DNA of 64,000 nucleotides from a bacterium (GCA_003252295.1 QKEV01000008.1:21574-85573); one strand, 5' to 3'. Positions 30,835 to 59,687 are shown, counted from the first letter of the stretch. Notes: a model not told the origin generated them from the letters alone. Made by a program: numbers and translations.

Positions 30835-30835
30835 T

Positions 30836-35034: not shown

Positions 35035-35045
35035 AAGGGAAGAAC

Positions 35046-35348: not shown

Positions 35349-35472
35349 TATGCACCTCCTTTGTGTTGTATGGTTACCGTATCTATGTATGAAAATAACA
35401 TAAAAACATATTGTTGTAAATACTTCCTATCTCACCTGCGTTAAGTTACATATTCGTGTAAGCTATAAGTAC

Positions 35473-36612: not shown

Positions 36613-36651
36613 CCTATTTGTTTTTACGTAGTTACTATATAGTAACAAGTC

Positions 36652-37650: not shown

Positions 37651-37714
37651 ATGTAGTAGCTGTACAAGAATGATTCACGTAACGTATGCCCTTTGTGTAT
37701 AAATCATGTAAATA

Positions 37715-40536: not shown

Positions 40537-41490
40537 TTGAGATATATGAGGCAGATTTCATACGTGATTCCAGTTTACAATGAAGAAGATACTTTATCAG
40601 AATTGTATAAGGAACTTTCTAAGGTGCTTGAAAAGATTGAGTGTATTTTTGAATTGATTTTTATAAATGATGGTAGTACAGATAGTTCATTAAAAATATT
40701 AAAAGAGCTTCAAAAAGGTGACCCAAGAATAGTTATAGTAGAATTTTCAAGGAATTTTGGGCACCAGATAGCAATTACCGCTGGAATTGACTATGCGCAG
40801 GGGGATGCAGTTATTGTGATGGATGGAGATTTGCAAGATCCTCCTACTGTAAGTTTGAGATTTATTGAAGAGTGGGAAAAAGGCGCTGAGGTGGTATATG
40901 GACAAAGAAGAACCAGAAAGGACACTTGGTTTAAAGAAAAAACAGCCAATTTGTTTTATAAGGTTTTAAACTTACTTTCTGATGTAGAAATACCTCAAAA
41001 TACTGGGGATTTCAGATTGATGGACAGAAAGGTGGTTGAAGTTATAAAACAAATAAGAGAACATAATCGTTTTATGCGTGGTCTCTCTAGTTATGTTGGT
41101 TTTAAACAAAAAGCTGTTTTATTTGATAGAGATGAGCGTTACGCGGGTGTGACTCACTATCCACTTAAGAAAATGATCAAGTTATCACTTGATGCGATTA
41201 TTGGTTTTTCGACAGTACCACTTAAATTGATTAGTAGACTGGGGTTTGTTGTTTCTGGGTTAAGTATTTGTGGAATTGTATATGCTTTATTTATGAAGTT
41301 TTTCTATGCATCAATTACAGTTTCTGGATGGACCTTTCTTGTAATCTCAATCTTCTTCTTAAGTGGTATACAAATGATAATACTTGGGGTAATAGGAGGA
41401 TACTTGGGAAGAATCTATGACGAGGTTCGAAATCGTCCGCTTTATATTATTTCTCGTGTGAGTCGTGGAAAAAGTATCGAAAGCATCTAA
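40537..41490 (+). CDS. GT2 polyprenyl-phosphate glycosyltransferase (GtrB/DPM1/ArnC-like) with C-terminal TM helices
   Basis: ISYVIPVYNEEDTL...INDGSTDSS...DGDLQDPP (DxD), plus two C-terminal hydrophobic helices. Confidence 0.85.
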   Translation: MRYMRQISYVIPVYNEEDTLSELYKELSKVLEKIECIFELIFINDGSTDSSLKILKELQKGDPRIVIVEFSRNFGHQIAITAGIDYAQGDAVIVMDGDLQDPPTVSLRFIEEWEKGAEVVYGQRRTRKDTWFKEKTANLFYKVLNLLSDVEIPQNTGDFRLMDRKVVEVIKQIREHNRFMRGLSSYVGFKQKAVLFDRDERYAGVTHYPLKKMIKLSLDAIIGFSTVPLKLISRLGFVVSGLSICGIVYALFMKFFYASITVSGWTFLVISIFFLSGIQMIILGVIGGYLGRIYDEVRNRPLYIISRVSRGKSIESI

Positions 41491-41491
41491 T

Positions 41492-43222
41492 ATGAAGCAC
41501 TTTATTTCGTACTCGCTAATCGGTGTTGTTGGAGCAACATTAGATTTTGTTTTGTTTTTGTTACTTTTGCGTATCGGTATATATTATCAATTTGCAAATT
41601 TTTTTAGTACTTGTGCAGGTATTTTTAATAATTTTTTTCTTAATTCTTACTTTAATTTTAAAAAAACGGATAAATTATTACTCCGACTCGCAAGCTTTTT
41701 TAGTGTTGGACTTTTAGGTCTTGCAGTAACTACTTTGTTGCTTGCATTTTTTGTGGGTGTGCTTGACCTTAATGCTGGTTTTGTTAAATTTTTTTCAATT
41801 GGAGTTATTACTGTAGTGCAGTTTACACTCAATAAACATATTACTTTTCGTAACAGAAAAAAAGTACCTCAAGGAATTCCACGAGGGCATGTTGCGATAA
41901 TAGGGGGTGGTTTTACAGGACTTGTTGCTGCATACGAACTTTCAAAGTATGAACATATACAGGTAACTTTATTTGAGGGAGGTAAAGAAGTTGGTGGGTT
42001 GGCTGCATCAACAAAAATAGAGAATGAGTCAATTGAGGCGGCTTACCATCACACATTTATGGGTGACAAGGAACTCAAAAGACTTTTAATAGAACTTGGG
42101 ATAGAAAAACAAATGCAATGGTTACCAAGTAGTGTAGGGTTATATGTTGGAGGTACAATGTATTCTTTCATGGGAGCTATCGATTTACTCCGTTTCAAAG
42201 CATTGCCTTTTTTTGATCGTTTACGTACAGGTGTTATTTCAGTTATGTTACAGATGTTGCCATGGTGGGAATGCTTAACTACTCAAAAGGCATATACCTG
42301 GGTCTATCGTTGGTATGGAAAACGAGCAAGTCAAGTTATATGGGGTCCACTATTGCAGGCAAAATTTTCTACATACTATAAAGATATATCCATGGCGTGG
42401 CTTTGGGCACGATTACATAGCCGTGGCGCTTCACGGAAAAATATTTTTTCAAAGGAGCTACTCGGTTACCCTAAAGGCGGGTACCAAGTAATCGTTGCAG
42501 TTATTGTTGAAGAGTTACAAAGGCGTGGGGTAAATATTTTGACGAATGCACAAATTACTTCTGTAGATAATACTTCAGTTGAATATGGTGGTATAAGCAC
42601 TAGTTTTGACAAGATACTTTTTACCACCTCATCAAAGGTTGCTTCTCAACTTATCAAACCATCAGTTATTAGTAAAGAATATAGATGGTACAAGGAAAAG
42701 TTGAGCTCAATCCATTACATTTCTGCCGTGACACTTTTATTTTCTTCAACTCAAAATATAAGTTCATATTATTGGAATACTGTTGCTGACGATTCAATTC
42801 CATTTCTTGTTTTTATTCAGCATACCAAACTTGTGTCTAAGGGTAACTATGGTGGTAATCATGTATATTATATTGGATCATATCTTTCTAATAATGATAA
42901 ACAATTAACAATGAAAGATGAGGAGTTGATTAATTATTGGTTTTTGGGTTTAAAGAAAATGTTTCCTCATTTTGATCGTTCGTGTGTAAGGGAGAAACAG
43001 TTATTTCGTTTTTCGAATGCACAACATGTCGTTGACACTTCTTATGTATCGCGTATACCTTCTTATCAAACTCCGCTCCCAAATGTATTTATTGCAAACT
43101 TTTCTCAAATTTTTCCTGAGGATCGTGGTATAAATTATGCTGTACGAGAAGGTAAACGTGTTTCTGAATATATGATAAATTCTTTAACTGAACAAAAAGA
43201 TACTAATGATATAAAGGGATAA
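41492..43222 (+). CDS. Fusion protein: GtrA-like membrane domain + NAD(P)/FAD-dependent oxidoreductase (amine-oxidase/UGM-like fold)
   Basis: The N-terminal ~130 aa have 4 TM helices with the GtrA-family pattern (SYSLIGVVGATLDFVLF...). Then VAIIGGGFTGLVAAYEL (GxGxxG) follows. It is a paralog of 47648..49228. Confidence 0.65.
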   Translation: MKHFISYSLIGVVGATLDFVLFLLLLRIGIYYQFANFFSTCAGIFNNFFLNSYFNFKKTDKLLLRLASFFSVGLLGLAVTTLLLAFFVGVLDLNAGFVKFFSIGVITVVQFTLNKHITFRNRKKVPQGIPRGHVAIIGGGFTGLVAAYELSKYEHIQVTLFEGGKEVGGLAASTKIENESIEAAYHHTFMGDKELKRLLIELGIEKQMQWLPSSVGLYVGGTMYSFMGAIDLLRFKALPFFDRLRTGVISVMLQMLPWWECLTTQKAYTWVYRWYGKRASQVIWGPLLQAKFSTYYKDISMAWLWARLHSRGASRKNIFSKELLGYPKGGYQVIVAVIVEELQRRGVNILTNAQITSVDNTSVEYGGISTSFDKILFTTSSKVASQLIKPSVISKEYRWYKEKLSSIHYISAVTLLFSSTQNISSYYWNTVADDSIPFLVFIQHTKLVSKGNYGGNHVYYIGSYLSNNDKQLTMKDEELINYWFLGLKKMFPHFDRSCVREKQLFRFSNAQHVVDTSYVSRIPSYQTPLPNVFIANFSQIFPEDRGINYAVREGKRVSEYMINSLTEQKDTNDIKG

Positions 43223-43226
43223 TTGT

Positions 43227-44888
43227 ATGTTATTTGATTTTGGTTCAATTAAAAAACATGGAATGATCGTCACCTTTCTTTTTGTCTGGACTTGCCTACA
43301 TGTGGTTGGTGTTACTTATGGTACCCATAATCTTCCATTACACCAGTCATATATAGGAGATGAACAAGCTCCAGTAAATGGTGCTTTGCATATCTTGCAA
43401 GATAAAAGTTTGTTAGCTGTACACAATTTAAAAACCTTATACTATGGTCCAGTTTTTGCGGTCTTTGCGTTACCAGCTGTAGTATCTGATTTTACTGTAC
43501 GGTTTGTGACAGGTGAGGTTTCTGGTGCTGATGATTATAAAAATTTTATTTTGTGGAATTGGGGAGGAATAGTTCTTGGTATACGGATTACAGCAACACT
43601 GGTAAGCTTAATGACTCTCATATTTGTGTACAAAATATTGTCCTTAGAAAGTATTAATGAAAAGAAGGATATGTTATTAGCTTTTTTTGGTACAACAATC
43701 GTTGGTTTAAATTTTTATTTTTTTGAATATTCACATTTTTTTAAACATTGGGTCTTTGTGATTTTCTTTTTGGTGGCACAAATATATTTTGCATTACGTT
43801 TACGTGAGGTAGATGGTAAAAGAAGTATCTACTGGATTTTGCATGGTATATGCTTTGTTTTAAGTTTCGGTATTAACTATTTGAGCGCTATATACGCAAT
43901 AGCTTTTCTACCACTACTTTATCTTTTGTGGATTAAAAAAGATAAAGTAGCAAGAAAATATATCTACCTTTATGTGGGTGGTGTGTCATTTACATCATTA
44001 CTAATATTGTTGTGGCATCCCTATGCCTTTTTAAGATATTTAGGTTTTTTAAATATAGGTGATGTAACTTCAGGAGGTGTTGGGAATACCTATAATCCGG
44101 TAACCTCCGTGGATAATTCATGGGGGTATTACTTAACAGAAATATTTTTCAATAATCTTCCTTTAGTTATTGGTGTATTAATTTTGCTATACTTACTGTA
44201 TAAAAGAGGTGTTATAAAAAAACAACTCTATTGGTTGTGGATGTTTATAAGCATTGCTTTAATAAACATGTTAGTCTTCTGTCCATCAACACATCATGAA
44301 GGGAGGTACATGCTTCCAACTATTATGATGTTACTTTTGTTGACAGGTGTTGCGTTGGTTAAATTTATAAACAATATCAAAAATCACGAGTTAGTGATCT
44401 TTCGTTTAGTATCTCTATTGTTAATTTTATATATTGGTTTTCATGTTGTGCATATCGGAAAATGGATAGAAATATATGCCCAAGGTCCGGTTGAAAAAGA
44501 GATATTAAAAGAAATATTTGAAAGGCAGGAAAAAAATGAAGACTTGTCTACAAATCCCGTTTTGCTTATACAGTCATATATTGCAGGTAATGTGCATACC
44601 AAAGAAGCATATGAGTTTTATATTGAAAAGAGGGGACGTGAAGATATGAATTTATATAAAGCGATAATGTCTGCACCACTCCCTGATAATATAGATTTAC
44701 TAAATGCACGTTATGTTTTTGATCAAGATCTACCTCAGGGGTATTTAGAAATTTCTGAATATGAAATGGTGTACCAGTATCTTACACCTAGATCTAAGGA
44801 ACTTAACTTGTTTGATTATTTTGATGAGAATCTGTTGAGACTTTGGTATTGGAAAAGTTTTTCTCCAAGGTATGTAAGAATAAAGTAA
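43227..44888 (+). CDS. Polytopic membrane protein, probable GT-C glycosyltransferase (ArnT/PMT-like)
   Basis: About 12 TM helices. There is an N-terminal loop with GDEQ (DE-type motif). Its position is after the GT2 + GtrA genes. Confidence 0.5.
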   Translation: MLFDFGSIKKHGMIVTFLFVWTCLHVVGVTYGTHNLPLHQSYIGDEQAPVNGALHILQDKSLLAVHNLKTLYYGPVFAVFALPAVVSDFTVRFVTGEVSGADDYKNFILWNWGGIVLGIRITATLVSLMTLIFVYKILSLESINEKKDMLLAFFGTTIVGLNFYFFEYSHFFKHWVFVIFFLVAQIYFALRLREVDGKRSIYWILHGICFVLSFGINYLSAIYAIAFLPLLYLLWIKKDKVARKYIYLYVGGVSFTSLLILLWHPYAFLRYLGFLNIGDVTSGGVGNTYNPVTSVDNSWGYYLTEIFFNNLPLVIGVLILLYLLYKRGVIKKQLYWLWMFISIALINMLVFCPSTHHEGRYMLPTIMMLLLLTGVALVKFINNIKNHELVIFRLVSLLLILYIGFHVVHIGKWIEIYAQGPVEKEILKEIFERQEKNEDLSTNPVLLIQSYIAGNVHTKEAYEFYIEKRGREDMNLYKAIMSAPLPDNIDLLNARYVFDQDLPQGYLEISEYEMVYQYLTPRSKELNLFDYFDENLLRLWYWKSFSPRYVRIK

Positions 44889-44924
44889 AGACACTTTTTA
44901 GTATATGATATTTATTTAATTTTT

Positions 44925-45848
44925 ATGTCAGAAAATATCGAAAAAAATTTTGTTCATATAATTGGAATTGGAGCTTACAAAGCAGCAAGCACTTGGGTGC
45001 ACACATGTTTACGTGAACACCCAGAAATATGTACAGCAACACTTAAGGAGACAAATTTTTTTGGTTCAAATTTTGAAAAAGGGTTTGATTGGTATAAAGG
45101 TCTTTTTGGTGATTATAAAGAAAAAGAACATTTACGTGCTGAATTTTCTCCTGAATATTTAGTAAACAAGGAATCTGCAGGAATGATAAAGATGTATGCA
45201 CCAGACGCAAAACTTATAGTAAGTTTACGAAATCCAATAAATAAAATCTCATCTCGTTATTATTATGATATAACAATTGGAAAGAAAAAACAGAGATTAG
45301 GTTTGAATGAGTGGTTAGAAAAAAACATCGAAAAGCCTAGTAAGTATTTTTTATCTGTTCTTGAGGAAAACAAATACTCCAGTGGTCTGAAGTTGTATTA
45401 TAGTCTTTTCCCAAAAGAACAGATATGTATTGTTTTGGTAGATGATATTAAGAAGGATCCTAAAATGGTGATCAGTAAAATATATAGTTTTCTTGAAGTT
45501 AATAGTACTTTTATTCCTGAAAGTTTGGAAAAAAAAGTAAATTTTACTACTGCAGATACTGTACATTTTCCTGCAATTAATAGATTTCTTTTTCAAATAC
45601 AGGCGAAGGTTAAGAATAGTCATTACGCTAATTTTTTTGTTCCAATGCTTAAGTTTTGTGGTTTTAATTTTCTTGCTAAGAAGCTTTTTCACATAAACAG
45701 AAATCATAAGGATGAAAATCATAGGGAATTAAAAAAGGAAAAAATAAGACAAGATTTAAGAAGAGAATTATATTCTCTTTTTGAGAATGATATCAAGGAA
45801 ACAGAAAAGCTGATTGGTAAAAAACTAGATGGTTGGAAAATTGATTAA
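44925..45848 (+). CDS. Sulfotransferase (PAPS-dependent)
   Basis: The 5'-PSB-like motif is YKAASTW (K-x-x-S/T-T-W). The 3'-PB-like motif is SLRNPINKISSRYYY (RNPxDxxxSxY). Confidence 0.65.
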   Translation: MSENIEKNFVHIIGIGAYKAASTWVHTCLREHPEICTATLKETNFFGSNFEKGFDWYKGLFGDYKEKEHLRAEFSPEYLVNKESAGMIKMYAPDAKLIVSLRNPINKISSRYYYDITIGKKKQRLGLNEWLEKNIEKPSKYFLSVLEENKYSSGLKLYYSLFPKEQICIVLVDDIKKDPKMVISKIYSFLEVNSTFIPESLEKKVNFTTADTVHFPAINRFLFQIQAKVKNSHYANFFVPMLKFCGFNFLAKKLFHINRNHKDENHRELKKEKIRQDLRRELYSLFENDIKETEKLIGKKLDGWKID

Positions 45849-45986
45849 ATTAATCAACATTTTTAAATTCCTTATTCTCTATATAAGAGCTTTAAAATAA
45901 GAGGAGATAACAGAAAGCGGTTATGGACACTTCTTGTTTTTGTTATGTGGTGGAAAAAATGGGTGAAAAAAAACGATTAAAGTGTT

Positions 45987-47027
45987 TTATGAAAGCCACT
46001 TTAAAATCTTAATCACTCCCATTTTAGCGTTTTGTTTATGTGCAGACACGTTTTGACGTGTTGCAATGGAAGTTTTGTTCTCATGGTAATACTTGTATGC
46101 CTCAAGAAGCATGTCTTCGTTGGTGTGGGTTGGTTGCCAATCCATCTCCTTCTTTATCTTGGCTGTGTCAAAAATAAAGTCTTCAGCTATCATCTTGTAT
46201 TGATAAGGACCAAGTGGTGATAATCCAAGTTTGTGTGCTAGACGCATAACCCACAAAATGAGTTTACGCGGTAGCCCTCTCACCTTTGATGTGGAATTGG
46301 TGTGTGTGATGACGTACTCATACACCTCCTTAAAACTTTTTACATTATCACTACCAATGTTGTAAATAACAGTTTTTTGTACATCAAGTGCTTTCAGGCA
46401 TGCATTAACAAGATCGTCTGCATAAATAAATTGGTATTTATTTTTACCACCACCTACAACCCAGACAATTCGGTTTTCATCCATAAACTCATACAAGATT
46501 GATAAAAGACCTAAACGACCTGCAGATATAATCGTTGGGCATCGAAACATTACTGAATGAATATGGTTACTGTATTCTGTGAGAATTTTCTCACCCTCAA
46601 CTTTTGTTTTACCGTAAATCTCAACAGGATTTGGTGTGTCTGTTTCTAGTACTGGTCGCCCCATAGGTTCACCCCAAAGGCAGTTGCTCGAGATAAAGAT
46701 AATTTGATCTGTGCCATGTTTCCTACACATTTCCGCAATGTTGCGTGTTCCATCGACGTTTGATTCCCATAAAAATTGCTTATCTTTTGCAATGTGTGCT
46801 AGCTGTGCCGCCAGATGAAATACACCATCAAATGGTCCATGTGCGCTAAAAATACTATCTAGGAGTTTCTGGTCTCGTATATCGCCGACGATACTTACCA
46901 GGTTGGTGTGTATCTTATCGTCGGGTTCTAGATCAATGTTTACAACACGGTGTCCATCCTTAAGGAGACGTTCTTTTAGAATCGTGCCAAAAAAACCTGA
47001 GCCACCTGTAATCAAAAAACTCTTCAT
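45987..47027 (-). CDS. NAD-dependent epimerase/dehydratase (extended SDR)
   Basis: FLITGGSGFFGT Rossmann motif and YGKTK (YxxxK). Confidence 0.85.
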   Translation of the reverse strand: MKSFLITGGSGFFGTILKERLLKDGHRVVNIDLEPDDKIHTNLVSIVGDIRDQKLLDSIFSAHGPFDGVFHLAAQLAHIAKDKQFLWESNVDGTRNIAEMCRKHGTDQIIFISSNCLWGEPMGRPVLETDTPNPVEIYGKTKVEGEKILTEYSNHIHSVMFRCPTIISAGRLGLLSILYEFMDENRIVWVVGGGKNKYQFIYADDLVNACLKALDVQKTVIYNIGSDNVKSFKEVYEYVITHTNSTSKVRGLPRKLILWVMRLAHKLGLSPLGPYQYKMIAEDFIFDTAKIKKEMDWQPTHTNEDMLLEAYKYYHENKTSIATRQNVSAHKQNAKMGVIKILKWLS

Positions 47028-47054
47028 ATTCTCTATCCTATCATAATAATGTCC

Positions 47055-47492
47055 TTATATTCGGTTATCTGAAAATGCAAAGAACTTTATTGCAAAAAAA
47101 TTAACAAAAAAACCAACCACCAGCGCAATACCTTTTGCCGGCATAACTTCGCAGGACGCGCCCTCAACTAATGCTATCACAACCAATAAATTAACGAGTA
47201 GACCAAAACCACTTGAAGCATAGTGTTTAATACATGTTCGAGTCCATGATGAGGAACGAGCAAAGACAAACTTATTTGAAAAGAGAAAGTTGGTCATTGT
47301 TCCTGACATAAAACCTGCGAAAACTGCAACAGTGTAGTGTACAAAAGGAACTTTTAGTACGAGATACACTGACAAAAGGTCTACGCATGCTGAAACAATA
47401 CTTACAAACAAGTAACGAAATAGTTGCCAAGTAAGGAATTTTGGAAATGGTACTGTAAGCAGTTTTTCTTGTAGATGGGTGTAAATGTTCAC
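47055..47492 (-). CDS. GtrA-family polysaccharide-synthesis membrane protein
   Basis: 145 aa with 4 TM helices. GtrA-like motifs (RYLFVSIVSACVDLL...FLFSNKFVF). Confidence 0.75.
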   Translation of the reverse strand: MNIYTHLQEKLLTVPFPKFLTWQLFRYLFVSIVSACVDLLSVYLVLKVPFVHYTVAVFAGFMSGTMTNFLFSNKFVFARSSSWTRTCIKHYASSGFGLLVNLLVVIALVEGASCEVMPAKGIALVVGFFVNFFAIKFFAFSDNRI

Positions 47493-47647
47493 GTACCTAC
47501 AATAATAATATATTTACAGTATGTTAACTACGTTTTATATGTAATTTCTATGATTGAGTATGAGTTTAGATGGAACTATAAGGATGGTATACTGGAATTA
47601 TTAAAGCAGTAAGCCAAATTCTAAGCTAATTCGGAATATTTATCATT

Positions 47648-49228
47648 ATGAAAAAGAAAGCAGTAATTATAGGTGGTGGTCCTGCAGGTCTAACAGCAGC
47701 GCATGAGTTGCTTGCTACTACTGATATACATCCTGTGGTGTTTGAGAAGGGTGAAATGTTTGGTGGTATAGCAAGAACAGAGAACTATAAAGGCAACAGG
47801 ATAGATATCGGTGGACATCGTTTTTTCTCAAAATCAGACAGGGTGATGGATTTCTGGCGAGCTTTTCTACCTGTTCAAGGGTACCCTGCGCAGGATGAGA
47901 TCAAACTTGGAGTAAAGAAGAGAGAAGAGTTTGTGTCAGATGGACCAGATCCGGAAAAAACTAACAATGTTATGTTGATACGTAGCAGACTGTCGAGGAT
48001 ATTTTACCTACGTAAGTTTTTTGACTATCCTGTAACGCTCAGTAAAAACACGTTACTCAACTTGGGTATAGTGAGAGTTGCTCGCATAGGTTTCAGCTAC
48101 ATAAAGATACGACTGTTTCCAAGAAAAGAAGAGAATTCGCTCGAAGACTTCTTTATTAACCGCTTTGGTGTTGAACTGTATAAAACTTTTTTTAAGGATT
48201 ACACGGAAAAGGTGTGGGGAATTCCTTGTACAAAGATAAAGGCAGAGTGGGGTGCACAGAGAATAAAAGGTCTATCTGTTACGAAGACTGTTTTACACGC
48301 ACTGCGTTCAGTACTTCCTAAGAGGAAAAGTATTGAGCAGAAAGATACTGAAACAAGTCTCATCGAAACATTTCTCTACCCTAAGCTTGGTCCGGGACAG
48401 ATGTGGGAGTCTGTAGCTCAAAGCATCATTGAAAGTGGTGGAGAAACTATCCTTAATAGTGAGATAGTGCGTATAAAGCTGCAAGGTAAAAAAGTTGTGT
48501 CGGTAACAGTAAAAGACAGAGGAAGTGGTAAAGAAGAAAGTGTTCCTGCTGACTACATCTTTTCAACCATGCCGATAAAAGAACTCATCACTTCCATGGA
48601 AGGTAGTGTTCCTGAAAGGGTGCATACTCTTGCGAAGGGACTTGAGTATAGGGACTTTATGACGGCTGGGTTGTTGCTCAACAAACTAAAGATTAAAAAC
48701 GAGACAAACATTAAAACAGTGGGGAACATCATTCCTGATAATTGGATATATATCCAAGAGCCGGATGTGAAGGTGGGAAGACTTCAGTTTTTTAACAACT
48801 GGAGTCCATATCTAGTGAGCAATGCAAACAAAGTCTGGATTGGGATGGAGTACTTTGCGAGTGAAGGGGATAAGCTTTGGTCGATGAGTGATGAAGCATT
48901 TTTAGAATTTGCAAAAGAGGAGCTTGCAAAGATAGGTATTTCTGATGAGAGTGATGTGGTAGATGGGGTGGTGATACGCGCTCCTAAAGCATATCCATCG
49001 TATACCGGAGAAGGGTATGACCACTTTAGTGAGATACGAGACTTTTGTGACAGTATTGAGAACTTGTACTTGATAGGTAGGAACGGTATGCATAAGTACA
49101 ACAACCAGGATCATTCAATGCTTTCAGCTTTTGAGGCAGTACGTCATATCCGTGAGAATTTGAAGACAAAAGAAAACATTTGGAACGTAAATGCGGAAAA
49201 GGAATATCATGAGGAGAAAAGTTCATAG
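47648..49228 (+). CDS. NAD(P)/FAD-dependent oxidoreductase (amine-oxidase/UDP-galactopyranose-mutase-like fold)
   Basis: [17 protein letters not shown] ... GGHRFFS. The family is shared with the C-terminal domain of 41492..43222. Confidence 0.7.
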
Positions 49229-50678: not shown

Positions 50679-50723
50679 TTAATTATATACCTAGAAATTT
50701 CTTTTTCAGTTACATGTTACAGT

Positions 50724-51785: not shown

Positions 51786-51795
51786 TAGAAAAAAT

Positions 51796-52446
51796 ATGAT
51801 AGCAACTTTAAAAAGGATTCGGGTAAAAATTTTAAACAAGATACGTGAAGGGAAACAGCAATTTGGCTTTTTACAGAGAAAGTATATTACGCCAAAGATA
51901 CCTGAAAATGAAGATGGTAAGGTGTATGTAAACTTAGGGTGTGGGGTAAATACCTCAGAGGAGTTTATTAATGTAGACACGAGAGGGTTCCCACACACGC
52001 ACTACATTCATGAGGTGGAAGACCTTTCTATGTTTGAGGATGGTTCTGTAGATTTACTGTATGCGAGTCATTTACTGGAGCATGTGGACAGGTCAAAAGT
52101 TCCTACAGTACTTAAAGAGTGGAAACGTGTTTTAAAGAGTGGAGGTGTGTTGCGTTTTGGAGTACCTGACTTTGATGGTTTGGTGGAAGTGTACAACGCA
52201 AACAAAAAGAATATTGAGTCGATAATGGCACCACTCATGGGCGGTGAGGGGAAGTATGATGATCATCATACAGCTTGGAATTTTGCATATGCTGAGAAAC
52301 TGCTAAAAGAAGCAGGGTATAGCGTAGTACGAACATGGGATCCGGAAAAAGTTGAGCACCATGATTTTAGTGACAAAACCATGCGAAAAATCGAAGTTGG
52401 AGAAAGAAAAATATCAATTAGTTTAAATGTTGAAGCGGTGAAGTAG
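51796..52446 (+). CDS. Class I SAM-dependent methyltransferase
   Basis: VYVNLGCGVNT (motif I) ... LLYASHLLEHV ... GGVLRFGVPD. Confidence 0.75.
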   Translation: MIATLKRIRVKILNKIREGKQQFGFLQRKYITPKIPENEDGKVYVNLGCGVNTSEEFINVDTRGFPHTHYIHEVEDLSMFEDGSVDLLYASHLLEHVDRSKVPTVLKEWKRVLKSGGVLRFGVPDFDGLVEVYNANKKNIESIMAPLMGGEGKYDDHHTAWNFAYAEKLLKEAGYSVVRTWDPEKVEHHDFSDKTMRKIEVGERKISISLNVEAVK

Positions 52447-52453
52447 GAAACGA

Positions 52454-53164
52454 CTATTCTCTAATAAAAAGAGAATCCTCAAAGAGTGGAAGCATGTTTT
52501 TACTGTTTCTTTTAGTACCAACATCCCCTTTGTATGTAAAACCAAGGTTTGTTAGTAGTGTATAGATATCAGCAAAGAGTGGTTGTCCTTTGTATAATTC
52601 GTAGTAAGCAGTTTCTATCAGTATTATGGAAGTTTCCTCAATGATGTTTTTTGCTCCAGAGAGCACCTTGTCTTCGTATCCTTGCACGTCAAGTTTTAAA
52701 AGAATCTCTTTCTTTAAGTTGTTTGCAGATAAGACAGTATCAAGAGTTTTCACGATTATCTTTTCTTCAGTTGTATCTTTTGTAAAAGGAAAAATTTCTT
52801 CTGCAAAGGCTGAGTTTTCAAGTATTGATGAACTTGGTGCGTAGGCATTTTTGTTCATTGATACTTCTTCGTTTTTGTCACCAAGTGCGAAGTTGAGCGC
52901 TGTAAAGTTTTTATCTTCACTAAAGTTTTCCTTTAAGGTTTTAAAGGTTTCTTGCAGTGGTTCAAAAGAGTAAATAGTAGCATCAGGTAAAACAGTCCTT
53001 ATGTCTGTTGCAAATTGACCAATGTTTGCACCTGCATCGATAACTGTTTCGATTTTATACTCATTTAAAAATAGGTAAGGGTGAAGATCTCCTGTATATT
53101 TTGTTACTTGTAAGCCCAATTTATTTACCGTCTTTTTTGTTATTTCTTTTGGTTTTGTTTTCAT
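52454..53164 (-). CDS. FkbM-family methyltransferase
   Basis: TVIDAGANIGQFA together with FALGD are typical of Methyltransf_21/FkbM. Confidence 0.75.
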   Translation of the reverse strand: MKTKPKEITKKTVNKLGLQVTKYTGDLHPYLFLNEYKIETVIDAGANIGQFATDIRTVLPDATIYSFEPLQETFKTLKENFSEDKNFTALNFALGDKNEEVSMNKNAYAPSSSILENSAFAEEIFPFTKDTTEEKIIVKTLDTVLSANNLKKEILLKLDVQGYEDKVLSGAKNIIEETSIILIETAYYELYKGQPLFADIYTLLTNLGFTYKGDVGTKRNSKNMLPLFEDSLFIRE

Positions 53165-53173
53165 AAAATTAGA

Positions 53174-54430
53174 TCAATGTTTTATTTTTTCAATACTTTC
53201 GTGTGCAAAAAGATATGATACTTGTAGATAAACAACACTATAAAGTAACTTTACAAATATTGCACCCCAAATACCGTATAAGAAGATGCAAACAATTGAC
53301 AAGATTATCTTAAAGAAGGGAAGTGTTACGTGAAGTATGTATAGAGATTTTTTTTCATAATTTGCCCATAGGGTAGGGATTAATATATAAGATGGTAAAA
53401 GAATTAAGGATAATACGTACACCTGTGAGTAAGGTAGTGAACTAAGGTAGTTTGAAAAGAAAAGTTTGTATCCAAATGGTGCAAGTAAAAGGTAAAAAAC
53501 CATGATCACTGATGCTATAAGTAGAAGCTGTTTTGTTTTTCTCCTTATACTATCCCAAGTCTTATGTTTATTTTCTGCAAGTTTTGGAAGCGCTAAGGGT
53601 GTTAATGATGTAAAAAGTGCTCTTAACCTGTCAGGTATGAGTACCGCAAAAGAGTAGATTGCAAGTTGCACTGGTCCAAGCAGGTGATAGATAATAATAT
53701 TATCTGTCTGTTGTGCCATTGAGTTTAGGATATTTGTCAAACTTTGATGTTTGGTGTAGGAAATATCCGACATATCAATTTCACTGTTTGTGGTCGGATA
53801 TTTTTTTTGTATAAAAAAGCAAAAAAAGGTATTTACTAATCCATTAACAACAAAATAAGCACATACTAACCAAATGGCACTTGGTGCAAAAAAGATCACA
53901 TAAACTGTTACTAAAAAGTAGACCAGAGTGGTTATGTTTGAGTACATTGTTGAGGTGCGGAACATTTTTTTACCTCTCAGAAAAGCCTGGTAGGTATTCA
54001 TCGTGTTTGACAGGGGACCAAAGATAGCAACAATTATAAATGAAATAGCATATGCTATGTTTTCGTTATAGAGATAGTACACTGCAAGAAATAAGGAAAA
54101 AAGAAAATACAACAGGGACCATTTCAATTGTATTTTGATAGATTTTTTAAACATACTGTCACGTCCTTGAGCCACAGCACGTATGACAGTAGTGTTCATA
54201 CCGGTGAGTGTAAAAGCGCTTAGAAGAGCAGCTGTAGAGAATATGTATTTATAAATACCGTAGGTATTTGGGTCAACAAAATTGGCAAGTAGTATTGAGA
54301 GTGTAAACGAGGATATTATTCCAACAATTTGTCCAACACCTAACCAGAAACCATTCTCTCCAATGTAAATCATGTCAGTCTTTGTGTAACGTTCAGTCCA
54401 CTTAAGAAACCTGTATATTTTGCTTTGCAT
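53174..54430 (-). CDS. Wzx-type oligosaccharide flippase (MOP/polysaccharide biosynthesis protein family)
   Basis: 418 aa with about 12 TM helices. The N-terminal region is MOP-flippase-like. Confidence 0.7.
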   Translation of the reverse strand: MQSKIYRFLKWTERYTKTDMIYIGENGFWLGVGQIVGIISSFTLSILLANFVDPNTYGIYKYIFSTAALLSAFTLTGMNTTVIRAVAQGRDSMFKKSIKIQLKWSLLYFLFSLFLAVYYLYNENIAYAISFIIVAIFGPLSNTMNTYQAFLRGKKMFRTSTMYSNITTLVYFLVTVYVIFFAPSAIWLVCAYFVVNGLVNTFFCFFIQKKYPTTNSEIDMSDISYTKHQSLTNILNSMAQQTDNIIIYHLLGPVQLAIYSFAVLIPDRLRALFTSLTPLALPKLAENKHKTWDSIRRKTKQLLLIASVIMVFYLLLAPFGYKLFFSNYLSSLPYSQVYVLSLILLPSYILIPTLWANYEKKSLYILHVTLPFFKIILSIVCIFLYGIWGAIFVKLLYSVVYLQVSYLFAHESIEKIKH

Positions 54431-54548
54431 GTATGGTAATTATAACCATAAAATATACATAAAAGTTGTGTAAATAACATATGTGACAACAGTAGTTTTT
54501 ATGTATCTTTGTTTTGTTATTAAAAGTAACAAATGATACAATCTGCAA

Positions 54549-55334
54549 ATGTCTGTTGAGGAGTATGCAGAAATGGTCAAAGATGTTAGCTCACTTTCTC
54601 TTGAGTATTACAAGAGGAGTGTTGAAGTTACCTACAAAGAAGATGACTCGCCACTCACTGAAGCGGACAGAGTGGTGCATAGGCATCTGGTTTCCGAACT
54701 ATCAAAGACAAACATACCAGTGCTTTCTGAGGAGGGGAATCAGGAGGTGAGTTCTACTGATGGGGAACTATGGGTGATTGATCCAATAGATGGTACAAAG
54801 GATTTTATACAAGGAACTGATCAATTCTCAACGATGGTTGCTCTAGTGCAGGACGGTGTGCCGATTATGGGTATAGTATACGCACCAGCACTAGATGAGC
54901 TTTACTTTGCTGAGAAAGGAAAAGGTGCCTACTTACAAGTGGGTGACAAGGTGGAACGTTTGACTGTTTCTGATAGAGGAGACCTTGCTGACGCGACACT
55001 TGTAGTGAGTCGTAACCACGGAAGTCCCGAGTATGAGGAAAAGCTTGAGGAGATTGGTGTTAAAAAGAGGGAGAAAGGGTCTATAGGAATAAAACTTGGT
55101 GAGATAGCAAAAGGTGATGCCGAAGTATACGTAAATCACTACCGTAAGCTTGGTTGGTGGGATGTGCTTGCGCCACAGATCATACTTGAGGAGGCGGGAG
55201 GTAAGGTGACTGGTTTGAGTGGAGAGGTGTTGCGGTATGATGAGCCGCCGTATCAGGTAGTGGAGGGTGTGCTTGCATCAAACGAGTTACTGCATGATTC
55301 TGTACTTGTAAGTTTTAACGAGATAGAAAGATAA
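54549..55334 (+). CDS. Inositol-monophosphatase-fold phosphatase, CysQ-like 3'(2'),5'-bisphosphate nucleotidase
   Basis: WVIDPIDGTKDF metal-binding motif and EEG...D pattern. The length is ~260 aa. Confidence 0.7.
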   Translation: MSVEEYAEMVKDVSSLSLEYYKRSVEVTYKEDDSPLTEADRVVHRHLVSELSKTNIPVLSEEGNQEVSSTDGELWVIDPIDGTKDFIQGTDQFSTMVALVQDGVPIMGIVYAPALDELYFAEKGKGAYLQVGDKVERLTVSDRGDLADATLVVSRNHGSPEYEEKLEEIGVKKREKGSIGIKLGEIAKGDAEVYVNHYRKLGWWDVLAPQIILEEAGGKVTGLSGEVLRYDEPPYQVVEGVLASNELLHDSVLVSFNEIER

Positions 55335-55353
55335 CCTATGGAGGAAGAATGTA

Positions 55354-55800
55354 GTGTTAGTCTTACAGCAAGTAACAATGGTTTTGTGCACTGGCTTTAT
55401 GGGCTTTTTGGTACCTGGTAAAACCACTGTTGCCGATAGAGTCTATAAAGAGGTACATGGGAAAGGTTTACCTATTGTGCGACTTGATGGTGACGTCGTA
55501 AGAGAAAATCTAACCGAAGACTTAGGTTTTAGTTGAGAAGATAGAAATGAAAATACACGCCGTGTTGGTTTTGTTGCTGACCTTTTGAGTAAGAATGGTG
55601 TAGTTGTGTTATCGTCGTTTATTACAGCTTATGAAGAGTGGAGAAAATGGCTCAGAGAGAGGGGATGCTTTCGTTTATAGGAATTTCGGACGTGTTTGAA
55701 ACTCCAGAAAAAACAGATGTTTGTTTGCAGTGGAGTGAAAAGTCAGCAGAAGAGAGTAAAACCCATTATTGATTATTTGAAAGAGGGTAGGATGATTTGA
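55354..55800 (+). pseudogene. cysC: Adenylyl-sulfate (APS) kinase gene disrupted by an in-frame TGA, a frameshift and an internal deletion
   Basis: The first frame has GFLVPGKTT (P-loop) and VRLDGDVVRENLTEDLGFS, followed by a stop. Downstream reads EDRNENTRRVGFVADLL...VVLSSFI, then in shifted frames DVFETPEKTDVCLQ and KPIIDYLKEGRMI. These match APS-kinase blocks LDGDNVRxxLxxDLGFS, DRxENIRR, FISP, EVFVDTPLEVCEQ and ILDYLKERG. Confidence 0.65.
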
Positions 55801-55826
55801 TAAAAAAGTGCTTCTTTTATATTTCG

Positions 55827-56882
55827 TTAAGAATTATGGATTTTTTTTAAAAATTTCGATAATTCTCTTGCATAAATTTCAGCATCTGCATTTTTGACAA
55901 CAAAATCTCGAGCATTCTTTCCTAAAAATTTTCTTTTGTTTTCATTATTGTATAAATCTCGAATTGCTTTTTGCATTGCCTTCACATCGTGTTTGGGCAC
56001 AAAGACACCATTCTTTCCATCTTGTATATAGGAAGATAGGGCTTTTGTTTTTGTAGCTATTATAGCCTTTCCGCTTGCCATGGCTTCAATAACTACATAT
56101 GTTCCCATTGAATCATTGTTGTCTTCTTTCATGTTTAGTCCGACAATGTTGATCCTTGCTCTATTGTAAAGTTTTTTCATTTCTTCATGAGTATAAAATC
56201 TTGCAGTTACATTTTTTGGTAAGGGTTCATACTGTGCCACTCGCTCTGGTTTGGTTGCGATGTGTAACTGAATTTCTGGTAATCCTTTCATTGCTTCGAT
56301 AAGTGTTCCAAAGTCGCGACTTGGATCAAGTCCAACAGAAATAATGTAGTCTCCTTCTTCCGTATCTGATGGTGTAAAATATTTTGTATCAACACCTTCA
56401 AATAAAAATTTTGCGCGTTCTCCCATATAAGGGAACATTTTTCGTAAAGAATCTTCTTCTGCTTGTGAAAGTGCCACAATACCATCAGCTTTTGAAACAG
56501 CATATTTAAAAAGTTTTGTCCTAAGTGTTTTTTCTTTTTCTATGGTACCAGTAATATTTGCATCATAAATAACCCACTTCGGTCTAGGTAAATGAAAAAT
56601 TGCTTTAAAGAGCAGGGATGCATAAGCTCCTCCTGTGAAAACGATATCATACTTAAAAAAGTATGGGAAAAAAGGTAAATGCATCCAAAAAATATTTAAA
56701 ATCCTTCTCCATACTTTTGCTACGGGATTGGGAAGTATGTGTTCAGGGTCAAAAAAATTTGTTTCAATACCATATTTTCTTATGCGGTACATACCAATAA
56801 AATGGTTGTCATGACCTTTGCCAGATTCAAAATTTTTTGCTTGTTCAATACGAGGACGACTGAACAAAAATAACACCTTCAT
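55827..56882 (-). CDS. Glycosyltransferase family 4
   Basis: GT4 C-terminal region (VIEAMASGKAIIATK). Confidence 0.75.
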   Translation of the reverse strand: MKVLFLFSRPRIEQAKNFESGKGHDNHFIGMYRIRKYGIETNFFDPEHILPNPVAKVWRRILNIFWMHLPFFPYFFKYDIVFTGGAYASLLFKAIFHLPRPKWVIYDANITGTIEKEKTLRTKLFKYAVSKADGIVALSQAEEDSLRKMFPYMGERAKFLFEGVDTKYFTPSDTEEGDYIISVGLDPSRDFGTLIEAMKGLPEIQLHIATKPERVAQYEPLPKNVTARFYTHEEMKKLYNRARINIVGLNMKEDNNDSMGTYVVIEAMASGKAIIATKTKALSSYIQDGKNGVFVPKHDVKAMQKAIRDLYNNENKRKFLGKNARDFVVKNADAEIYARELSKFLKKIHNS

Positions 56883-56946
56883 AAAATATTTATTACATTA
56901 GTGATTGTAACATTAGTATAGTTAAAATTGTTAACAAGAAATAAAA

Positions 56947-59628
56947 ATGTGGATAGTAGACAGAGTTTTAAAAAATAATGTTATTTTAATAATATTAATA
57001 GTTCTTTATTTTTTTAACATGTTTTTTAGAAGAGTTTTAATAAAAAATATCATACAACTGTTTGTGTTGTCTGTTGTTGCCGCTGCTCCAAGTGATTTTT
57101 TATTTGCAGAAGAAATACAGACCATTAAAAGTGATGTATCATTATCGGATGGTTTAGTATCGTATTGGTCAATGGATGAGGAAATTGGTATCAGAAAAGA
57201 CATTGTAGGAGGAAATGATTTAATACCAGAAGGAAACGTGATAGGAATTTCAGCGGTACAAGGATATGGTGCTGATTTTGTAAAGAATAATATTGAATCA
57301 CTGTATGTAGAACATGTTCCTGAATTAGAACCAGGTAGTGATTACAGTATTTCTCTTTGGTACAGACATGATAGTTCTGAATATAATGTTCAAAGTGTAA
57401 TTTCAAAGGATGGTGTGAATCCATTAAAAGGATACACTTTATTTACAGATGATGGTTCTATTTTGTATATGACACATCAGAATATAACCACGTTGCATGG
57501 TCCAACCCTTGAAGTTGGTAAGTGGTATCACATTGTCGCAACACATGATGCTACAAATAATTTAAATTTTCTATACGTAAATAATTCTGCACCTTATACA
57601 GTACCTGGTGGGTATTTGGATTCCGAAGGAGCGACTTTAAGAGTAGGTGGATATAACTATAATACAAATTATTATTCTGACGGTGCAGTTGATGAGTTAG
57701 GTTACTGGAATCGGGTACTTACTCAGGAGGAGGTAGGTCGTTTGTATAACGAAGGTGAAGGTGTGCCATATGATGTTAGTAATGAAGATGTTGACGATGG
57801 GGTGTCGTCTGTAGCTTTTATTCCAGGTATTACAGGTAGTAGGTTATACGTAAATAGTTTATTTGGTGAAGATAAGTTGTGGGAGTCAATACGTTTAGGT
57901 GATTTGAGTGATATTGGTTTTACTAAAGATGGTGTGAGTGAGCGAAATGATGTATATACGAGAGATGTTGTGGAAACACTTCGCCCAGTAGTTGAGTGGT
58001 GGGATTACGCAGAGGGGTATAGTGATTTTATGGAATATCTCAATATCCTTACTCAAGAAGGTTTAATAAATGAATGGGAGGCACTTCCATATGATTGGCG
58101 TATGGCAACCGATAAACTTTTTCACTATGGTGAAAATTTGGGTAATGGAAATATTTCATATCTGACAGGTGAGCAAGATGAACCATACATTATTACTCGA
58201 CTAGAAGAACTTGCAGAAAACTCTCAAACAGGAAAGGTGACTATTGTTGCGCACAGTAATGGTGGTTTAGTAGCGAGAAATCTTTTGAAGTATTTACAAG
58301 ATACAAATCATCCTTTGTTTGAAAAAATTGATAAAGTGATACTTGTTAGTTCACCACTTCTTGGCACCCCTAAAACTATTGGAGAATTATTGCATGGTAC
58401 GACTAATATCGTAGAAGGTGCCACACGGGACGCAATGGAAAATATGCCAGGGGTGTATGGGTTGTTGCCATCGCAAATACTTATGAGTAATTTAAATGAC
58501 CCGGTAGTTGAAGTAGATTATCTTGCTCAAATTGAAAATCCATTTAAGAATTTTTACGATACAAAAATAACAACATATGATGATCTTGTGGCGTTCTTGC
58601 TTGGCGAATTGGCGCCTAGAAATGAACCAGATAGTACTGAGACATGGATGCCAAATATACTTAACAAAACTATTCTAGAGGATGTACGGAGTATGCATAG
58701 TGGTGTCGACAGTCAAGATTTTCCTGAAAATATTGAGGTGGTGTCGATCATAGGAACTGATCTTCCAACCGCTCGTGCTGTTCGATATACAAATTGTCTT
58801 GAGTATCATGTTGCATGTGTGGGAAAGGAGAGCGAGACATTACATGAATGGCTTTTTACTACAAGAGGTGACGGAACAGTTGTTACAACCTCGGCAAAGG
58901 GTGGTGTTGGGGTAGATAAAACAGTGTTTGTTTCACTTACAAAAATTGGTAAGGATGAAGGTGAAAATTATAGACATGCCACCATATTGTCTTCTTTATA
59001 TGTGCAAAATGTGATTAAGAGTGTGCTTTTGGGAATGAGTGATGAAATTGAAGGTGGAACTGAAGGTGTGAATACTGTAAAACGAATAGAACTCAAAGTG
59101 TATTCGCCTGTTGATGTGCATTTCTATAAAGATGATAACCATACCGGTGTGGTTAAAAATGGTGAAGAAAATGATTTTGGTAGGGAGTATGAACAAGAAG
59201 TACCAACATCATACTATCGTGAATGGGGTGAGGTTACTTACTTAGGAACCGAGTTGTATGATGATAATCTGGACATAACTTTTAAAGGGAAAGAAGTGGG
59301 TATGTTCACTTTAACGTTTGATGTGTATTTAGGGGAAGAATTACTTGATTCATATATATTTAAAGATATTCCTGTGAATTCAAAGACGGAAGGTTGGATT
59401 GAATTGACTGAAGGTGGGGAACCAATTTTGCACTATGATGGTGATGGAGATGGGGAAATCGATTTTACATTGAAACCGGATGATAGTATTCCTGATTCAC
59501 TTAGGAAATGGGTAAGAAACAAATTTCGTGTGATAGCAGAACTTATGCAACAAAAAGGAAAAGGTGTTGCAATAGCAATTGAAAGTCAGTTTAGTGAGAT
59601 ATCTCATAAGTTACAAAAAACATATTAA
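56947..59628 (+). CDS. Secreted/membrane-anchored protein: LamG-like (concanavalin-A-like lectin) domain + alpha/beta-hydrolase (lipase/PGAP1-like) domain
   Basis: N-terminal TM/signal. LamG_3-like block (SISLWYRHDSS...GKWYHIVATHDATNNLNFLYVNN). GxSxG nucleophile context IVAHSNGGLVARNLL. Confidence 0.5.
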   Translation: MWIVDRVLKNNVILIILIVLYFFNMFFRRVLIKNIIQLFVLSVVAAAPSDFLFAEEIQTIKSDVSLSDGLVSYWSMDEEIGIRKDIVGGNDLIPEGNVIGISAVQGYGADFVKNNIESLYVEHVPELEPGSDYSISLWYRHDSSEYNVQSVISKDGVNPLKGYTLFTDDGSILYMTHQNITTLHGPTLEVGKWYHIVATHDATNNLNFLYVNNSAPYTVPGGYLDSEGATLRVGGYNYNTNYYSDGAVDELGYWNRVLTQEEVGRLYNEGEGVPYDVSNEDVDDGVSSVAFIPGITGSRLYVNSLFGEDKLWESIRLGDLSDIGFTKDGVSERNDVYTRDVVETLRPVVEWWDYAEGYSDFMEYLNILTQEGLINEWEALPYDWRMATDKLFHYGENLGNGNISYLTGEQDEPYIITRLEELAENSQTGKVTIVAHSNGGLVARNLLKYLQDTNHPLFEKIDKVILVSSPLLGTPKTIGELLHGTTNIVEGATRDAMENMPGVYGLLPSQILMSNLNDPVVEVDYLAQIENPFKNFYDTKITTYDDLVAFLLGELAPRNEPDSTETWMPNILNKTILEDVRSMHSGVDSQDFPENIEVVSIIGTDLPTARAVRYTNCLEYHVACVGKESETLHEWLFTTRGDGTVVTTSAKGGVGVDKTVFVSLTKIGKDEGENYRHATILSSLYVQNVIKSVLLGMSDEIEGGTEGVNTVKRIELKVYSPVDVHFYKDDNHTGVVKNGEENDFGREYEQEVPTSYYREWGEVTYLGTELYDDNLDITFKGKEVGMFTLTFDVYLGEELLDSYIFKDIPVNSKTEGWIELTEGGEPILHYDGDGDGEIDFTLKPDDSIPDSLRKWVRNKFRVIAELMQQKGKGVAIAIESQFSEISHKLQKTY

Positions 59629-59687
59629 AGTATTTGTAAAATTTCTTTATTGAAATAGTTTCTTCATCACGACGATGTTTTTCCAGA

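Follow-up and report, generated by a model that had tools for sequence, protein, structure and literature searches.

Three AT-rich gene blocks in the predicted cell-surface glycan locus of an uncultured Paceibacteria bacterium

We analyzed a stretch of 64,000 nucleotides of bacterial DNA (GCA_003252295.1 QKEV01000008.1:21574-85573; hereafter the window, in which positions are counted from the first nucleotide) that has an overall GC content of 41.3% and hosts a putative locus for a cell-surface glycan. Three blocks of genes in this locus, which we call A, B and C, are markedly richer in AT than the rest of the window, and this dip in GC is real and far beyond chance. We hold with moderate confidence that the blocks are three modules with a separate history, acquired from lower-GC lineages, mostly other Patescibacteria, or carrying alleles replaced from them, in events that are not demonstrably recent.

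Three gene-bounded blocks of AT-rich DNA

An initial annotation of the window, made from its sequence alone, had described two AT-richer islands inside the glycan locus, the first reaching to 47.5 kb, between flanks of ~45-50% GC. When GC is measured in 200-bp bins, these stretches (40537-47492 and 52454-59630) have mean values of 0.339 and 0.358, respectively, compared with 0.434 (standard deviation 0.045) in the bins outside them (P-value 4e-16 and 6e-12, Mann-Whitney test against the rest of the window). The lowest GC over 5 kb is 0.324 inside and 0.415 outside. The AT-richness of both stretches is thus confirmed, although their flanks measure ~43.5% GC rather than 45-50%. GC at third codon positions (GC3) ranges from 0.21 to 0.31 in the low genes and from ~0.30 to 0.52 elsewhere.

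Synonymous codon usage was expressed for each gene as a z-score, obtained by drawing synonymous codons from the background usage while holding the gene's own amino-acid sequence. Background z-scores have a standard deviation of 2.1 and range from -4.5 to +5.7. A significant synonymous shift towards AT is detectable in eight genes only (z from -4.8 to -12.7), which form three blocks:

Block A, 40537 to ~45990, GC 0.326
40537..41490, plus strand: GtrB-type polyprenyl-phosphate glycosyltransferase (GT2; Pfam GT2, 117 bits); GC 0.345, z -6.6
41465..43222, plus strand: GtrA (residues 16-128) fused to a flavin adenine dinucleotide (FAD) amine-oxidase-type oxidoreductase (GtrA-FAD); GC 0.345, z -9.7
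43227..44888, plus strand: predicted GT-C fold membrane glycosyltransferase (AlphaFold model and Foldseek); GC 0.321, z -11.2
44925..45848, plus strand: sulfotransferase of the 3'-phosphoadenosine 5'-phosphosulfate (PAPS) type (Pfam Sulfotransfer_1, 54 bits); GC 0.292 (the window minimum), GC3 0.208, z -8.8
Block B, 52454-54548, GC 0.330
52454..53164, minus strand: FkbM-family methyltransferase (Pfam Methyltransf_21, 73 bits); GC 0.336, z -4.8
53174..54430, minus strand: Wzx-type flippase (Pfam Polysacc_synt, 64 bits, cutoff 28); GC 0.338, z -5.1
Block C, 55827-59630, GC 0.349
55827..56882, minus strand: GT4 glycosyltransferase GT4h (Pfam Glycos_transf_1, 67 bits); GC 0.338, z -8.0
56947..59628, plus strand: secreted protein with LamG domain and LCAT-type alpha/beta hydrolase (Laminin_G_3 62 bits, LCAT 58 bits); GC 0.360, z -12.7 (the strongest in the window)

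Maximum-likelihood segmentation places changes in GC at ~39.8, 46.0 and 59.9 kb, and the steps in GC coincide with gene borders within 300 nt or less. The first island therefore ends at ~45.9-46.0 kb and leaves out an epimerase and a reverse-strand GtrA gene with background-like usage. The second is split into B and C by the CysQ gene, which had been counted as AT-rich cargo and has a GC of 0.452. All genes of the original cargo list were correctly identified by name, and the GT4 gene at 55827-56882 had been missed. In dinucleotide relative abundance, block A lies at a distance delta* of 112 from the background and block C at 104, compared with 36-43 +/- 10 for background segments of equal length, none of which reaches the value of A (0 of 138) or C (0 of 144). 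Overall, both GC and synonymous codon usage differ from the rest of the window, as does the dinucleotide signature of A and C.

The genes next to and between the blocks resemble the background:

39892..40536, plus strand: S-adenosylmethionine-type methyltransferase MT11a (Pfam Methyltransf_11, 63 bits); GC 0.386 (transitional), z -2.4
45987..47027, minus strand: NAD-dependent epimerase/dehydratase of the short-chain dehydrogenase/reductase (SDR) type (Pfam Epimerase, 133 bits); GC 0.394, z -1.8
47055..47492, minus strand: stand-alone GtrA-family protein (Pfam GtrA_DPMS_TM, 58 bits); marginal composition shift, z -2.4
47648-49228, plus strand: FAD oxidoreductase (Pfam/NCBIfam); native composition, z -1.1
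49191-50678, plus strand: PMT_2-type GT-C (Pfam/NCBIfam); native composition, z +0.2
50724-51785, plus strand: glycosyltransferase GT4g (Pfam/NCBIfam); native composition, z -0.9
51796-52446, plus strand: methyltransferase MT11b (Pfam/NCBIfam); native composition, z -2.5
54549..55334, plus strand: CysQ-like 3'(2'),5'-bisphosphate nucleotidase (Pfam Inositol_P, 167 bits); z -0.1
55354..55772, plus strand: pseudogene of cysC, encoding adenosine 5'-phosphosulfate (APS) kinase (tblastn)

From ~37.7 kb onwards, the glycan locus shows a mild shift in GC (-0.02 to -0.03), caused by amino-acid composition. This accounts for the slightly reduced GC of the middle section (0.404-0.408 with different bounds), in which there is no synonymous shift. 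The PMT_2-type GT-C, GT4g and MT11b, all of native GC, adjoin the AT-rich GT-C, GT4h and FkbM genes. Since neighbors of the same class are native in composition, gene class fails to explain the dip.

It is barely credible that the dip is an artefact, produced either by a chimeric metagenome contig or by the amino-acid composition of membrane proteins. The source is indeed a metagenome assembly, and several of the low-GC genes (GT-C, Wzx and GtrA) encode membrane proteins. However, the shift survives conditioning on the protein sequence, hits the soluble sulfotransferase, FkbM, GT4h and LCAT proteins and spares the membrane protein PMT_2, which rules out protein composition as its cause. It is true that Logan contigs end within the AT-rich blocks (44890, 52858 and 56579). 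Nevertheless, two independent contigs of run SRR7216773 reproduce four junctions: L001 matches 26652-44890 exactly and spans the left junction of block A, while L093 matches 52858-56579 with three single-nucleotide differences and spans the junctions between block B, cysQ, the cysC pseudogene and block C. Gene order also agrees with that of relatives, and a mis-join would require long exact k-mers in common, which organisms 10% apart in GC would not have. The contig ends fall in blocks A, B and C, respectively, and the three differences (53141, 53151 and 56535) are confined to FkbM and GT4h; both could stem from poor coverage of AT-rich DNA or from micro-diversity among strains that is concentrated in the blocks.

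Conserved anchors and variable content in related loci

To judge by its proteins, the host is an uncultured Parcubacteria/Paceibacteria bacterium of the Candidate Phyla Radiation (CPR). The best named homologues of two of them, the GT-C of block A and a Wzy_C protein with TPR repeats (Wzy-TPR), belong to Parcubacteria, Paceibacteria and Patescibacteria, and the window also encodes a subtilase with a pilin domain of the type IV secretion system (T4SS), a TrwB-like ATPase, Mur ligases and MurB. We predict that the region makes up the variable section of a cell-surface glycan locus of the Wzx/Wzy type, enclosed by conserved, housekeeping-like anchors. The left anchor is a CofD/YvcK homologue with GT4 genes, and the right one is formed by Wzy-TPR, MurB and SecA:

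59688..62012, plus strand: Wzy_C (O-antigen ligase/polymerase family) with TPR (Pfam Wzy_C, 69 bits, cutoff 32)
62585..63625, plus strand: MurB (Pfam), in the order Wzy-TPR, MurB, SecA also in the related loci L003, L005, L007 and L011

Unlike enterobacterial wzy, the Wzy-TPR gene is conserved and of native GC (0.457), with 3541 homologues of which the closest non-self one is 65% identical. The same strain aside, no relative closer than ~65-70% protein identity was found in the collections. The CofD/YvcK-family gene (36652-37650), which lies among GT4 genes and is 69% identical to its counterpart in the related locus L008, has the highest GC of the window (0.518, z +5.7) and looks like a housekeeping gene within the glycan locus.

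The content upstream of the conserved Wzy-TPR, MurB and SecA anchor differs in each relative examined (L003, L005, L007/L010, L008, L011 and L094-L096). Examples are:

L005: Ku and LigD
L003: NeuB, CMP-sugar synthetase, methyltransferase, LCAT and a toxin-antitoxin pair
L007/L010: GT47, FkbM (minus strand), Wzx (minus strand), epimerases, GT2 and LCAT
L011: two GT-C, Wzx (minus strand) and LamG-LCAT

Toxin-antitoxin genes lie beside Wzy-TPR, at the border between variable and conserved parts, in L003 (9308-9842, YafQ/RelB) and in L011 (13602-13811, MazE-like).

The closest syntenic relative, L008, shares with the window the order GT4d, CofD, GT4e, GT4f, GT2, GtrA-FAD, GT-C, FAD oxidoreductase, GtrA and PMT_2, followed after a gap by GT4g and MT11b and after another by FkbM and a minus-strand Wzx. 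The core of block A (GT2, GtrA-FAD and GT-C) is 55-69% identical to L008 over the global alignment, and the pairs in the flanks and the middle are 37-72% identical. The middle backbone genes (47648..52446), which have syntenic L008 orthologues in this same range of 37-72%, are of lower GC in L008. Because the three core genes have syntenic orthologues there, they are not an insertion. The L008 copies, with a GC of 0.37-0.41, are not markedly AT-rich. In the window, GC3 of the three genes lies 0.07-0.09 below that of L008, also at identical residues, and GC at first codon positions (GC1) lies 0.05-0.12 below. In all eight orthologue pairs outside block A, Wzx included, GC3 of the window is within 0.01 of the L008 copy or above it. 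This pattern fits the replacement of alleles or an old acquisition, and not a fresh insertion.

Several genes are specific to the window when compared with L008. MT11a, which adjoins the left edge of block A, is absent at that position in L008, where GT4f is directly followed by GT2, and a 288-bp spacer takes the place of the sulfotransferase. The reverse-strand epimerase has no counterpart in L008, and the GtrA gene next to it shares only 29% identity with that of L008, located after the FAD oxidoreductase on the plus strand. The FkbM allele, which has no match to the L008 FkbM, the cysQ gene with the cysC pseudogene, and GT4h complete the list. The positions of Wzx and LamG-LCAT are conserved in relatives. 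Conversely, L008 has between its CofD and GT4e genes a small gene of the 23S_rRNA_IVP family (L008:3177-3533, GC 0.283) that the window lacks, a further short AT-rich indel at this locus.

Exchange of modules or drift in place

The shift could also have arisen in situ, if fast-evolving resident genes, weakly selected for codon usage or poorly expressed, had accumulated AT-biased mutations with no transfer at all. We consider this rather unlikely, but several observations weigh against transfer and most of them favor drift. We surveyed the Wzy-TPR loci of Paceibacteria and recovered 80 genome loci, 38 of them with full flanks. Glycan genes are AT-richer than the core in many of these relatives: Wzx, found in 24 of the 80 loci and always upstream of Wzy-TPR, has a median GC 0.048 below that of its own Wzy-TPR, and the median GC of the upstream 10 kb is 0.015 below that of the downstream, being lower in 29 of 38 loci (P-value 0.003). 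L003, L010 and L094, as well as L011, have dips of their own, and part of the dip in the window could be intrinsic. The core trio of block A, Wzx and LCAT all occupy conserved positions, which excludes a simple insertion, and replacement is what we infer. Neither a donor nor a near-identical relative of the blocks was found. The window has tRNAs only at 720-793 and 7517-7591, away from the blocks, and its repeats, which are short and do not exceed what chance would give, include no convincing pair that flanks the blocks. The value of delta* depends in part on codon usage, and it is not significant for the 2.1 kb of block B alone (P-value 0.13). The junctions at ~45.9, 52.45 and 59.63 kb have no independent assembly support. 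Finally, it has been remarked that the AT-richness of wzx and wzy 'needs explanation' (PMC3715488).

Other data are difficult to reconcile with drift. The borders of the blocks are sharp and gene-bounded, and neighboring genes of the same class are native in composition. The block A proteins have diverged from L008 no more than the flanks, with no sign of relaxed constraint. The sulfotransferase has no relatives in the lineage. In addition, the AT-rich genes differ between relatives of the same locus, since the closer relatives have gene-bounded dips in different genes:

L007/L010: FkbM and Wzx, GC 0.42 compared with 0.50-0.58
L011: two methyltransferases, 0.38-0.40 compared with 0.51-0.58
L094: most of the locus, 0.28-0.39 compared with 0.42-0.46
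L008: PMT_2 through Wzx

Because the AT-rich genes vary between lineages, history explains the pattern better than function. Among the 38 distant loci with full flanks, the deepest 2-kb dip has a median of 0.040 (interquartile range 0.026-0.059, maximum 0.148), compared with ~0.11 in the window, and is no deeper upstream than downstream of Wzy-TPR. A dip generic to all Wzy-TPR loci of Paceibacteria is therefore ruled out for distant relatives.

No integrase, transposase or phage gene was detected in the window (Pfam, all open reading frames of at least 100 amino acids), and with neither a nearby tRNA nor flanking repeats the idea of a mobile island was rejected. The blocks share with classical genomic islands an atypical base composition, a distinct dinucleotide signature and accessory cargo. 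They differ in the lack of tRNA, integrase, transposase and direct repeats, and in being embedded gene for gene in a conserved framework. It is likewise very improbable that block A is the remnant of a serotype-conversion cassette borne by a phage or an island, like the gtrABC operons of enterobacteria. Block A does have the gtrB/gtrA/GT-C architecture of these operons, which have been described as horizontally acquired and phage-carried (PMC11194591), and prophages with group-1 glycosyltransferases have been reported in Paceibacteria (PMC12455944). Nonetheless, besides the missing mobility genes, tRNA and repeats, no relatives of the GT-C family (searched with an alignment), the sulfotransferase or GT4h occur on 2.9 million viral contigs, and the trio of GT2, GtrA-FAD and GT-C is chromosomally syntenic in L008. 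Taken together, these results largely refute a phage cassette.

Exchange with lower-GC lineages thus remains our preferred reading of the three blocks. Modules would have been acquired, or resident alleles swapped for homologous ones, with no recognizable mobile element, along the same route that has been proposed for O-antigen clusters turning into GC mosaics. The initial annotation had suggested that the islands are horizontally acquired or recently exchanged cassettes that would diversify the glycan. Exchange is made plausible by the synonymous shift, the sharp borders and the variable content, which differs between the conserved anchors in every relative examined. Its recency is not borne out, since no near-identical donor or viral link was found and the blocks lack an adjacent tRNA, flanking repeats and any integrase or transposase.

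A putative three-component module and a sulfotransferase in block A

Block A appears to be an extended GtrABC-like three-component module accompanied by a sulfotransferase, since the genes for a GtrB-type GT2, a GtrA-family protein and a GT-C transferase form one operon, as in the gtrB/gtrA/GT-C architecture. Matches of the GT2 protein in PDB include sll0501/GtrB (5EKP, E-value 1.4e-92, residues 6-307) and ArnC (2e-46), and its L008 orthologue is 69-71% identical with a GC of 0.409. This enzyme would load a sugar onto polyprenyl phosphate. The second protein matches Pfam GtrA_DPMS_TM (PF04138, 74 bits) and Amino_oxidase (78 bits) as well as NCBIfam PRK07233 (405 bits, cutoff 252), and the same fusion occurs in L008 with 55-56% identity. 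It would presumably flip the lipid-linked sugar and possibly oxidize it.

At the sequence level, the third protein has only a match to Pfam DUF6056 that is below threshold. An AlphaFold model built with 35 homologues has high confidence (pLDDT 90.8, pTM 0.92), and its top Foldseek matches in PDB are ALG12, STT3/PglB, ArnT, ALG9, Pmt4 and AftA (probability 1.00, TM 0.42-0.52). Every named one of its 78 homologues belongs to Patescibacteria, the best non-self one being 60% identical. The model and these homologues identify 43227-44888 as a predicted GT-C fold enzyme of a family restricted to Patescibacteria, which would pass the sugar to the glycan outside the membrane.

The sulfotransferase has a different set of relatives. 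Its best homologues are 34-37% identical, and the named ones come from Promethearchaeota, Bacteroidia and Desulfosediminicola; among the homologues found, none is labelled as Patescibacteria and none exceeds 37% identity. The gene possibly derives from outside Patescibacteria. By eye, its translation contains the PAPS-binding motifs YKAASTW and RNPINKISS.

Blocks B and C and the resident backbone

The FAD oxidoreductase, the PMT_2-type GT-C, GT4g, the methyltransferase, cysQ and the decayed cysC would form a native backbone that the three AT-rich blocks interrupt. Block B brings together the Wzx flippase and the FkbM methyltransferase. The best homologue of FkbM among the fetched loci (56%) occupies the same position after GT4g in L095/L096, two loci of ~35% GC. 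Near the 3' end of MT11b, the 20-nt unit TTAAAGAGTGGAAACGTGTT occurs twice in tandem (52112-52151). A further copy at 85% identity lies past the junction of MT11b and FkbM, at 52479-52498 in the 3' end of the oppositely oriented FkbM. These repeats may be due to chance or may be a recombination scar.

Block C combines a GT4 glycosyltransferase with a secreted LamG-LCAT hydrolase. The best homologue of GT4h in any fetched locus is only 33% identical. LCAT homologues adjoin Wzy-TPR in L003, L007 and L011, where they have native GC and are 30-37% identical to the window copy. In the window, GC of LamG-LCAT is 0.10 below that of its own Wzy-TPR, which is 58-64% identical to those of the same three loci. 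Among 1.84 billion representatives, the best full-length match to LamG-LCAT has 44% identity. A single-protein scan of genome contigs with LamG-LCAT and one of metagenome contigs with PMT_2 returned no relatives, and in both cases an alignment-based scan did find them.

Remnants of a sulfation pathway

The CysQ-like gene lies between blocks B and C, a position reproduced by the independent contig L093, and its score against the NCBIfam equivalog TIGR01331 (191 bits) is below the cutoff of 229. The cysC sequence that follows, identical in L093, aligns with residues 33-121 of Escherichia coli CysC (47% identity in tblastn, across a stop). It carries an in-frame TGA at 55534-55536, a TAG at 55678-55680, a frameshift and an internal deletion of ~35 codons, and its C-terminal motif lies in another frame. 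Genetic code 25 does not rescue the gene, as TGA ends 4 of 48 normal genes and the TAG and the frameshift would remain. With TGA serving as an ordinary stop codon of the genome, cysC is a true pseudogene. No ATP sulfurylase was matched by Pfam in the window's open reading frames of at least 100 amino acids. The sulfotransferase of block A is intact, in a window that has no functional APS kinase.

At least 6 of the 80 distant Paceibacteria loci (L082, L052, L086, L092, L084 and L045) have an intact APS kinase gene as the immediate upstream neighbor of Wzy-TPR. In two of them (L082:8107-9816 and L052:8071-9720), it is part of a bifunctional protein with PUA_2, ATP-sulfurylase and APS-kinase domains, and its gene comes after Wzx and LCAT in L082 and after Wzx and a sulfotransferase in L052. 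These intact kinases make sulfation beside Wzy-TPR a recurrent architecture at the level of the family, and suggest that this CPR class recurrently carries sulfated surface glycans. With native GC and, for cysQ, background-like codon usage, cysQ and the cysC pseudogene, initially taken for island cargo, most plausibly survive from the resident backbone, and block C now separates them from Wzy-TPR.

Further features of the window

Upstream of the glycan locus, the window encodes a subtilase with a C-terminal T4SS-pilin domain (8210-10645) and a coupling ATPase of the TrwB/TraG type, after which comes a lamin-tail/PKD protein (24746-28139). These are typical surface and T4SS-like components of CPR bacteria. 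The open reading frame at 42-392 has an inverted codon-position pattern (GC1 0.30, GC3 0.53) and is probably not a real gene in that frame.

Discussion

The O-antigen clusters of Salmonella are segmented in GC, with glycosyltransferases, wzx and wzy at 28-37% compared with 51-52% in the genome, a pattern ascribed to transfer from low-GC donors that have not been identified (PMC3715488). Our locus resembles these galactose-initiated enterobacterial clusters in being a Wzx/Wzy-family glycan locus between conserved flanks, with gene-bounded GC segments at or below the genome average, glycosyltransferases and wzx among the lowest, content that varies between lineages, and no donor found. There are also clear differences. 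The host is a monoderm-like CPR bacterium that lacks lipopolysaccharide, and its Wzy_C-TPR is conserved and of native GC, rather than variable and AT-rich. Unlike those clusters, the window has no initiating polyprenyl-phosphate phosphoglycosyltransferase (no Bac_transf or Glycos_transf_4 match in open reading frames of at least 100 amino acids), which may lie elsewhere in the genome. Moreover, variation is known here between species that are ~60-70% identical, and not between strains or serotypes.

Block A also resembles GtrABC systems (PMC11127046, PMC11194591) in having a GtrB-type GT2, a GtrA-family protein and a GT-C transferase in one operon. The two GT-C, the two FAD oxidoreductases and the SDR epimerase of the window are reminiscent of the extended three-component systems of Bacillus (PMC11194591). 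It differs from GtrABC systems in the fusion of GtrA to an FAD oxidoreductase, in the lack of a phage context and in a GT-C that belongs to a Patescibacteria-only family with no above-threshold membership in Pfam.

Another parallel is offered by mycobacteria (see also PMC11194591), whose lipid-linked arabinofuranose route comprises DprE1/DprE2, the GtrA-like Rv3789 and the GT-C AftA. Both systems bring together an FAD oxidoreductase, an SDR reductase or epimerase, a GtrA-like protein and a GT-C. However, the oxidoreductase of the window is of the amine-oxidase/phytoene-desaturase type (PRK07233/PRK07208) and not a VAO-family DprE1, and there is no phosphoribosyltransferase. By analogy, this suggests that a lipid-linked sugar may be oxidized and reduced before its transfer.

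Overall, the locus shows the well-precedented mosaic of a variable polysaccharide locus and does not overturn current understanding. It extends the classical GC-mosaic pattern to the CPR and, on a corrected map, separates the compositionally foreign genes from the resident ones. Wzy-TPR and MurB offer a usable anchor to compare glycan loci across Paceibacteria, and the genes around them point to an extended three-component module (GtrB, GtrA-FAD oxidoreductase and GT-C) and a decaying sulfation branch.

Attachment of CPR bacteria to their hosts is believed to be mediated by cell-surface structures, which, to our knowledge, are almost unstudied. We put forward, as a tentative possibility, that throughout Paceibacteria the region upstream of Wzy-TPR and MurB is a hypervariable, serotype-like glycan locus, in which modules are swapped across CPR lineages of 35-58% GC and which holds an uncharacterized GtrA-FAD and a sulfation chemistry that is losing PAPS. 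If this were true, the GtrA-FAD fusion would suggest that oxidation or epimerization of a lipid-linked sugar is coupled to its flipping, and glycan sulfation in this lineage would be losing its PAPS supply. Exchange at such a locus would be expected to affect surface antigenicity, and the locus itself could set the host attachment or the phage susceptibility of CPR episymbionts.

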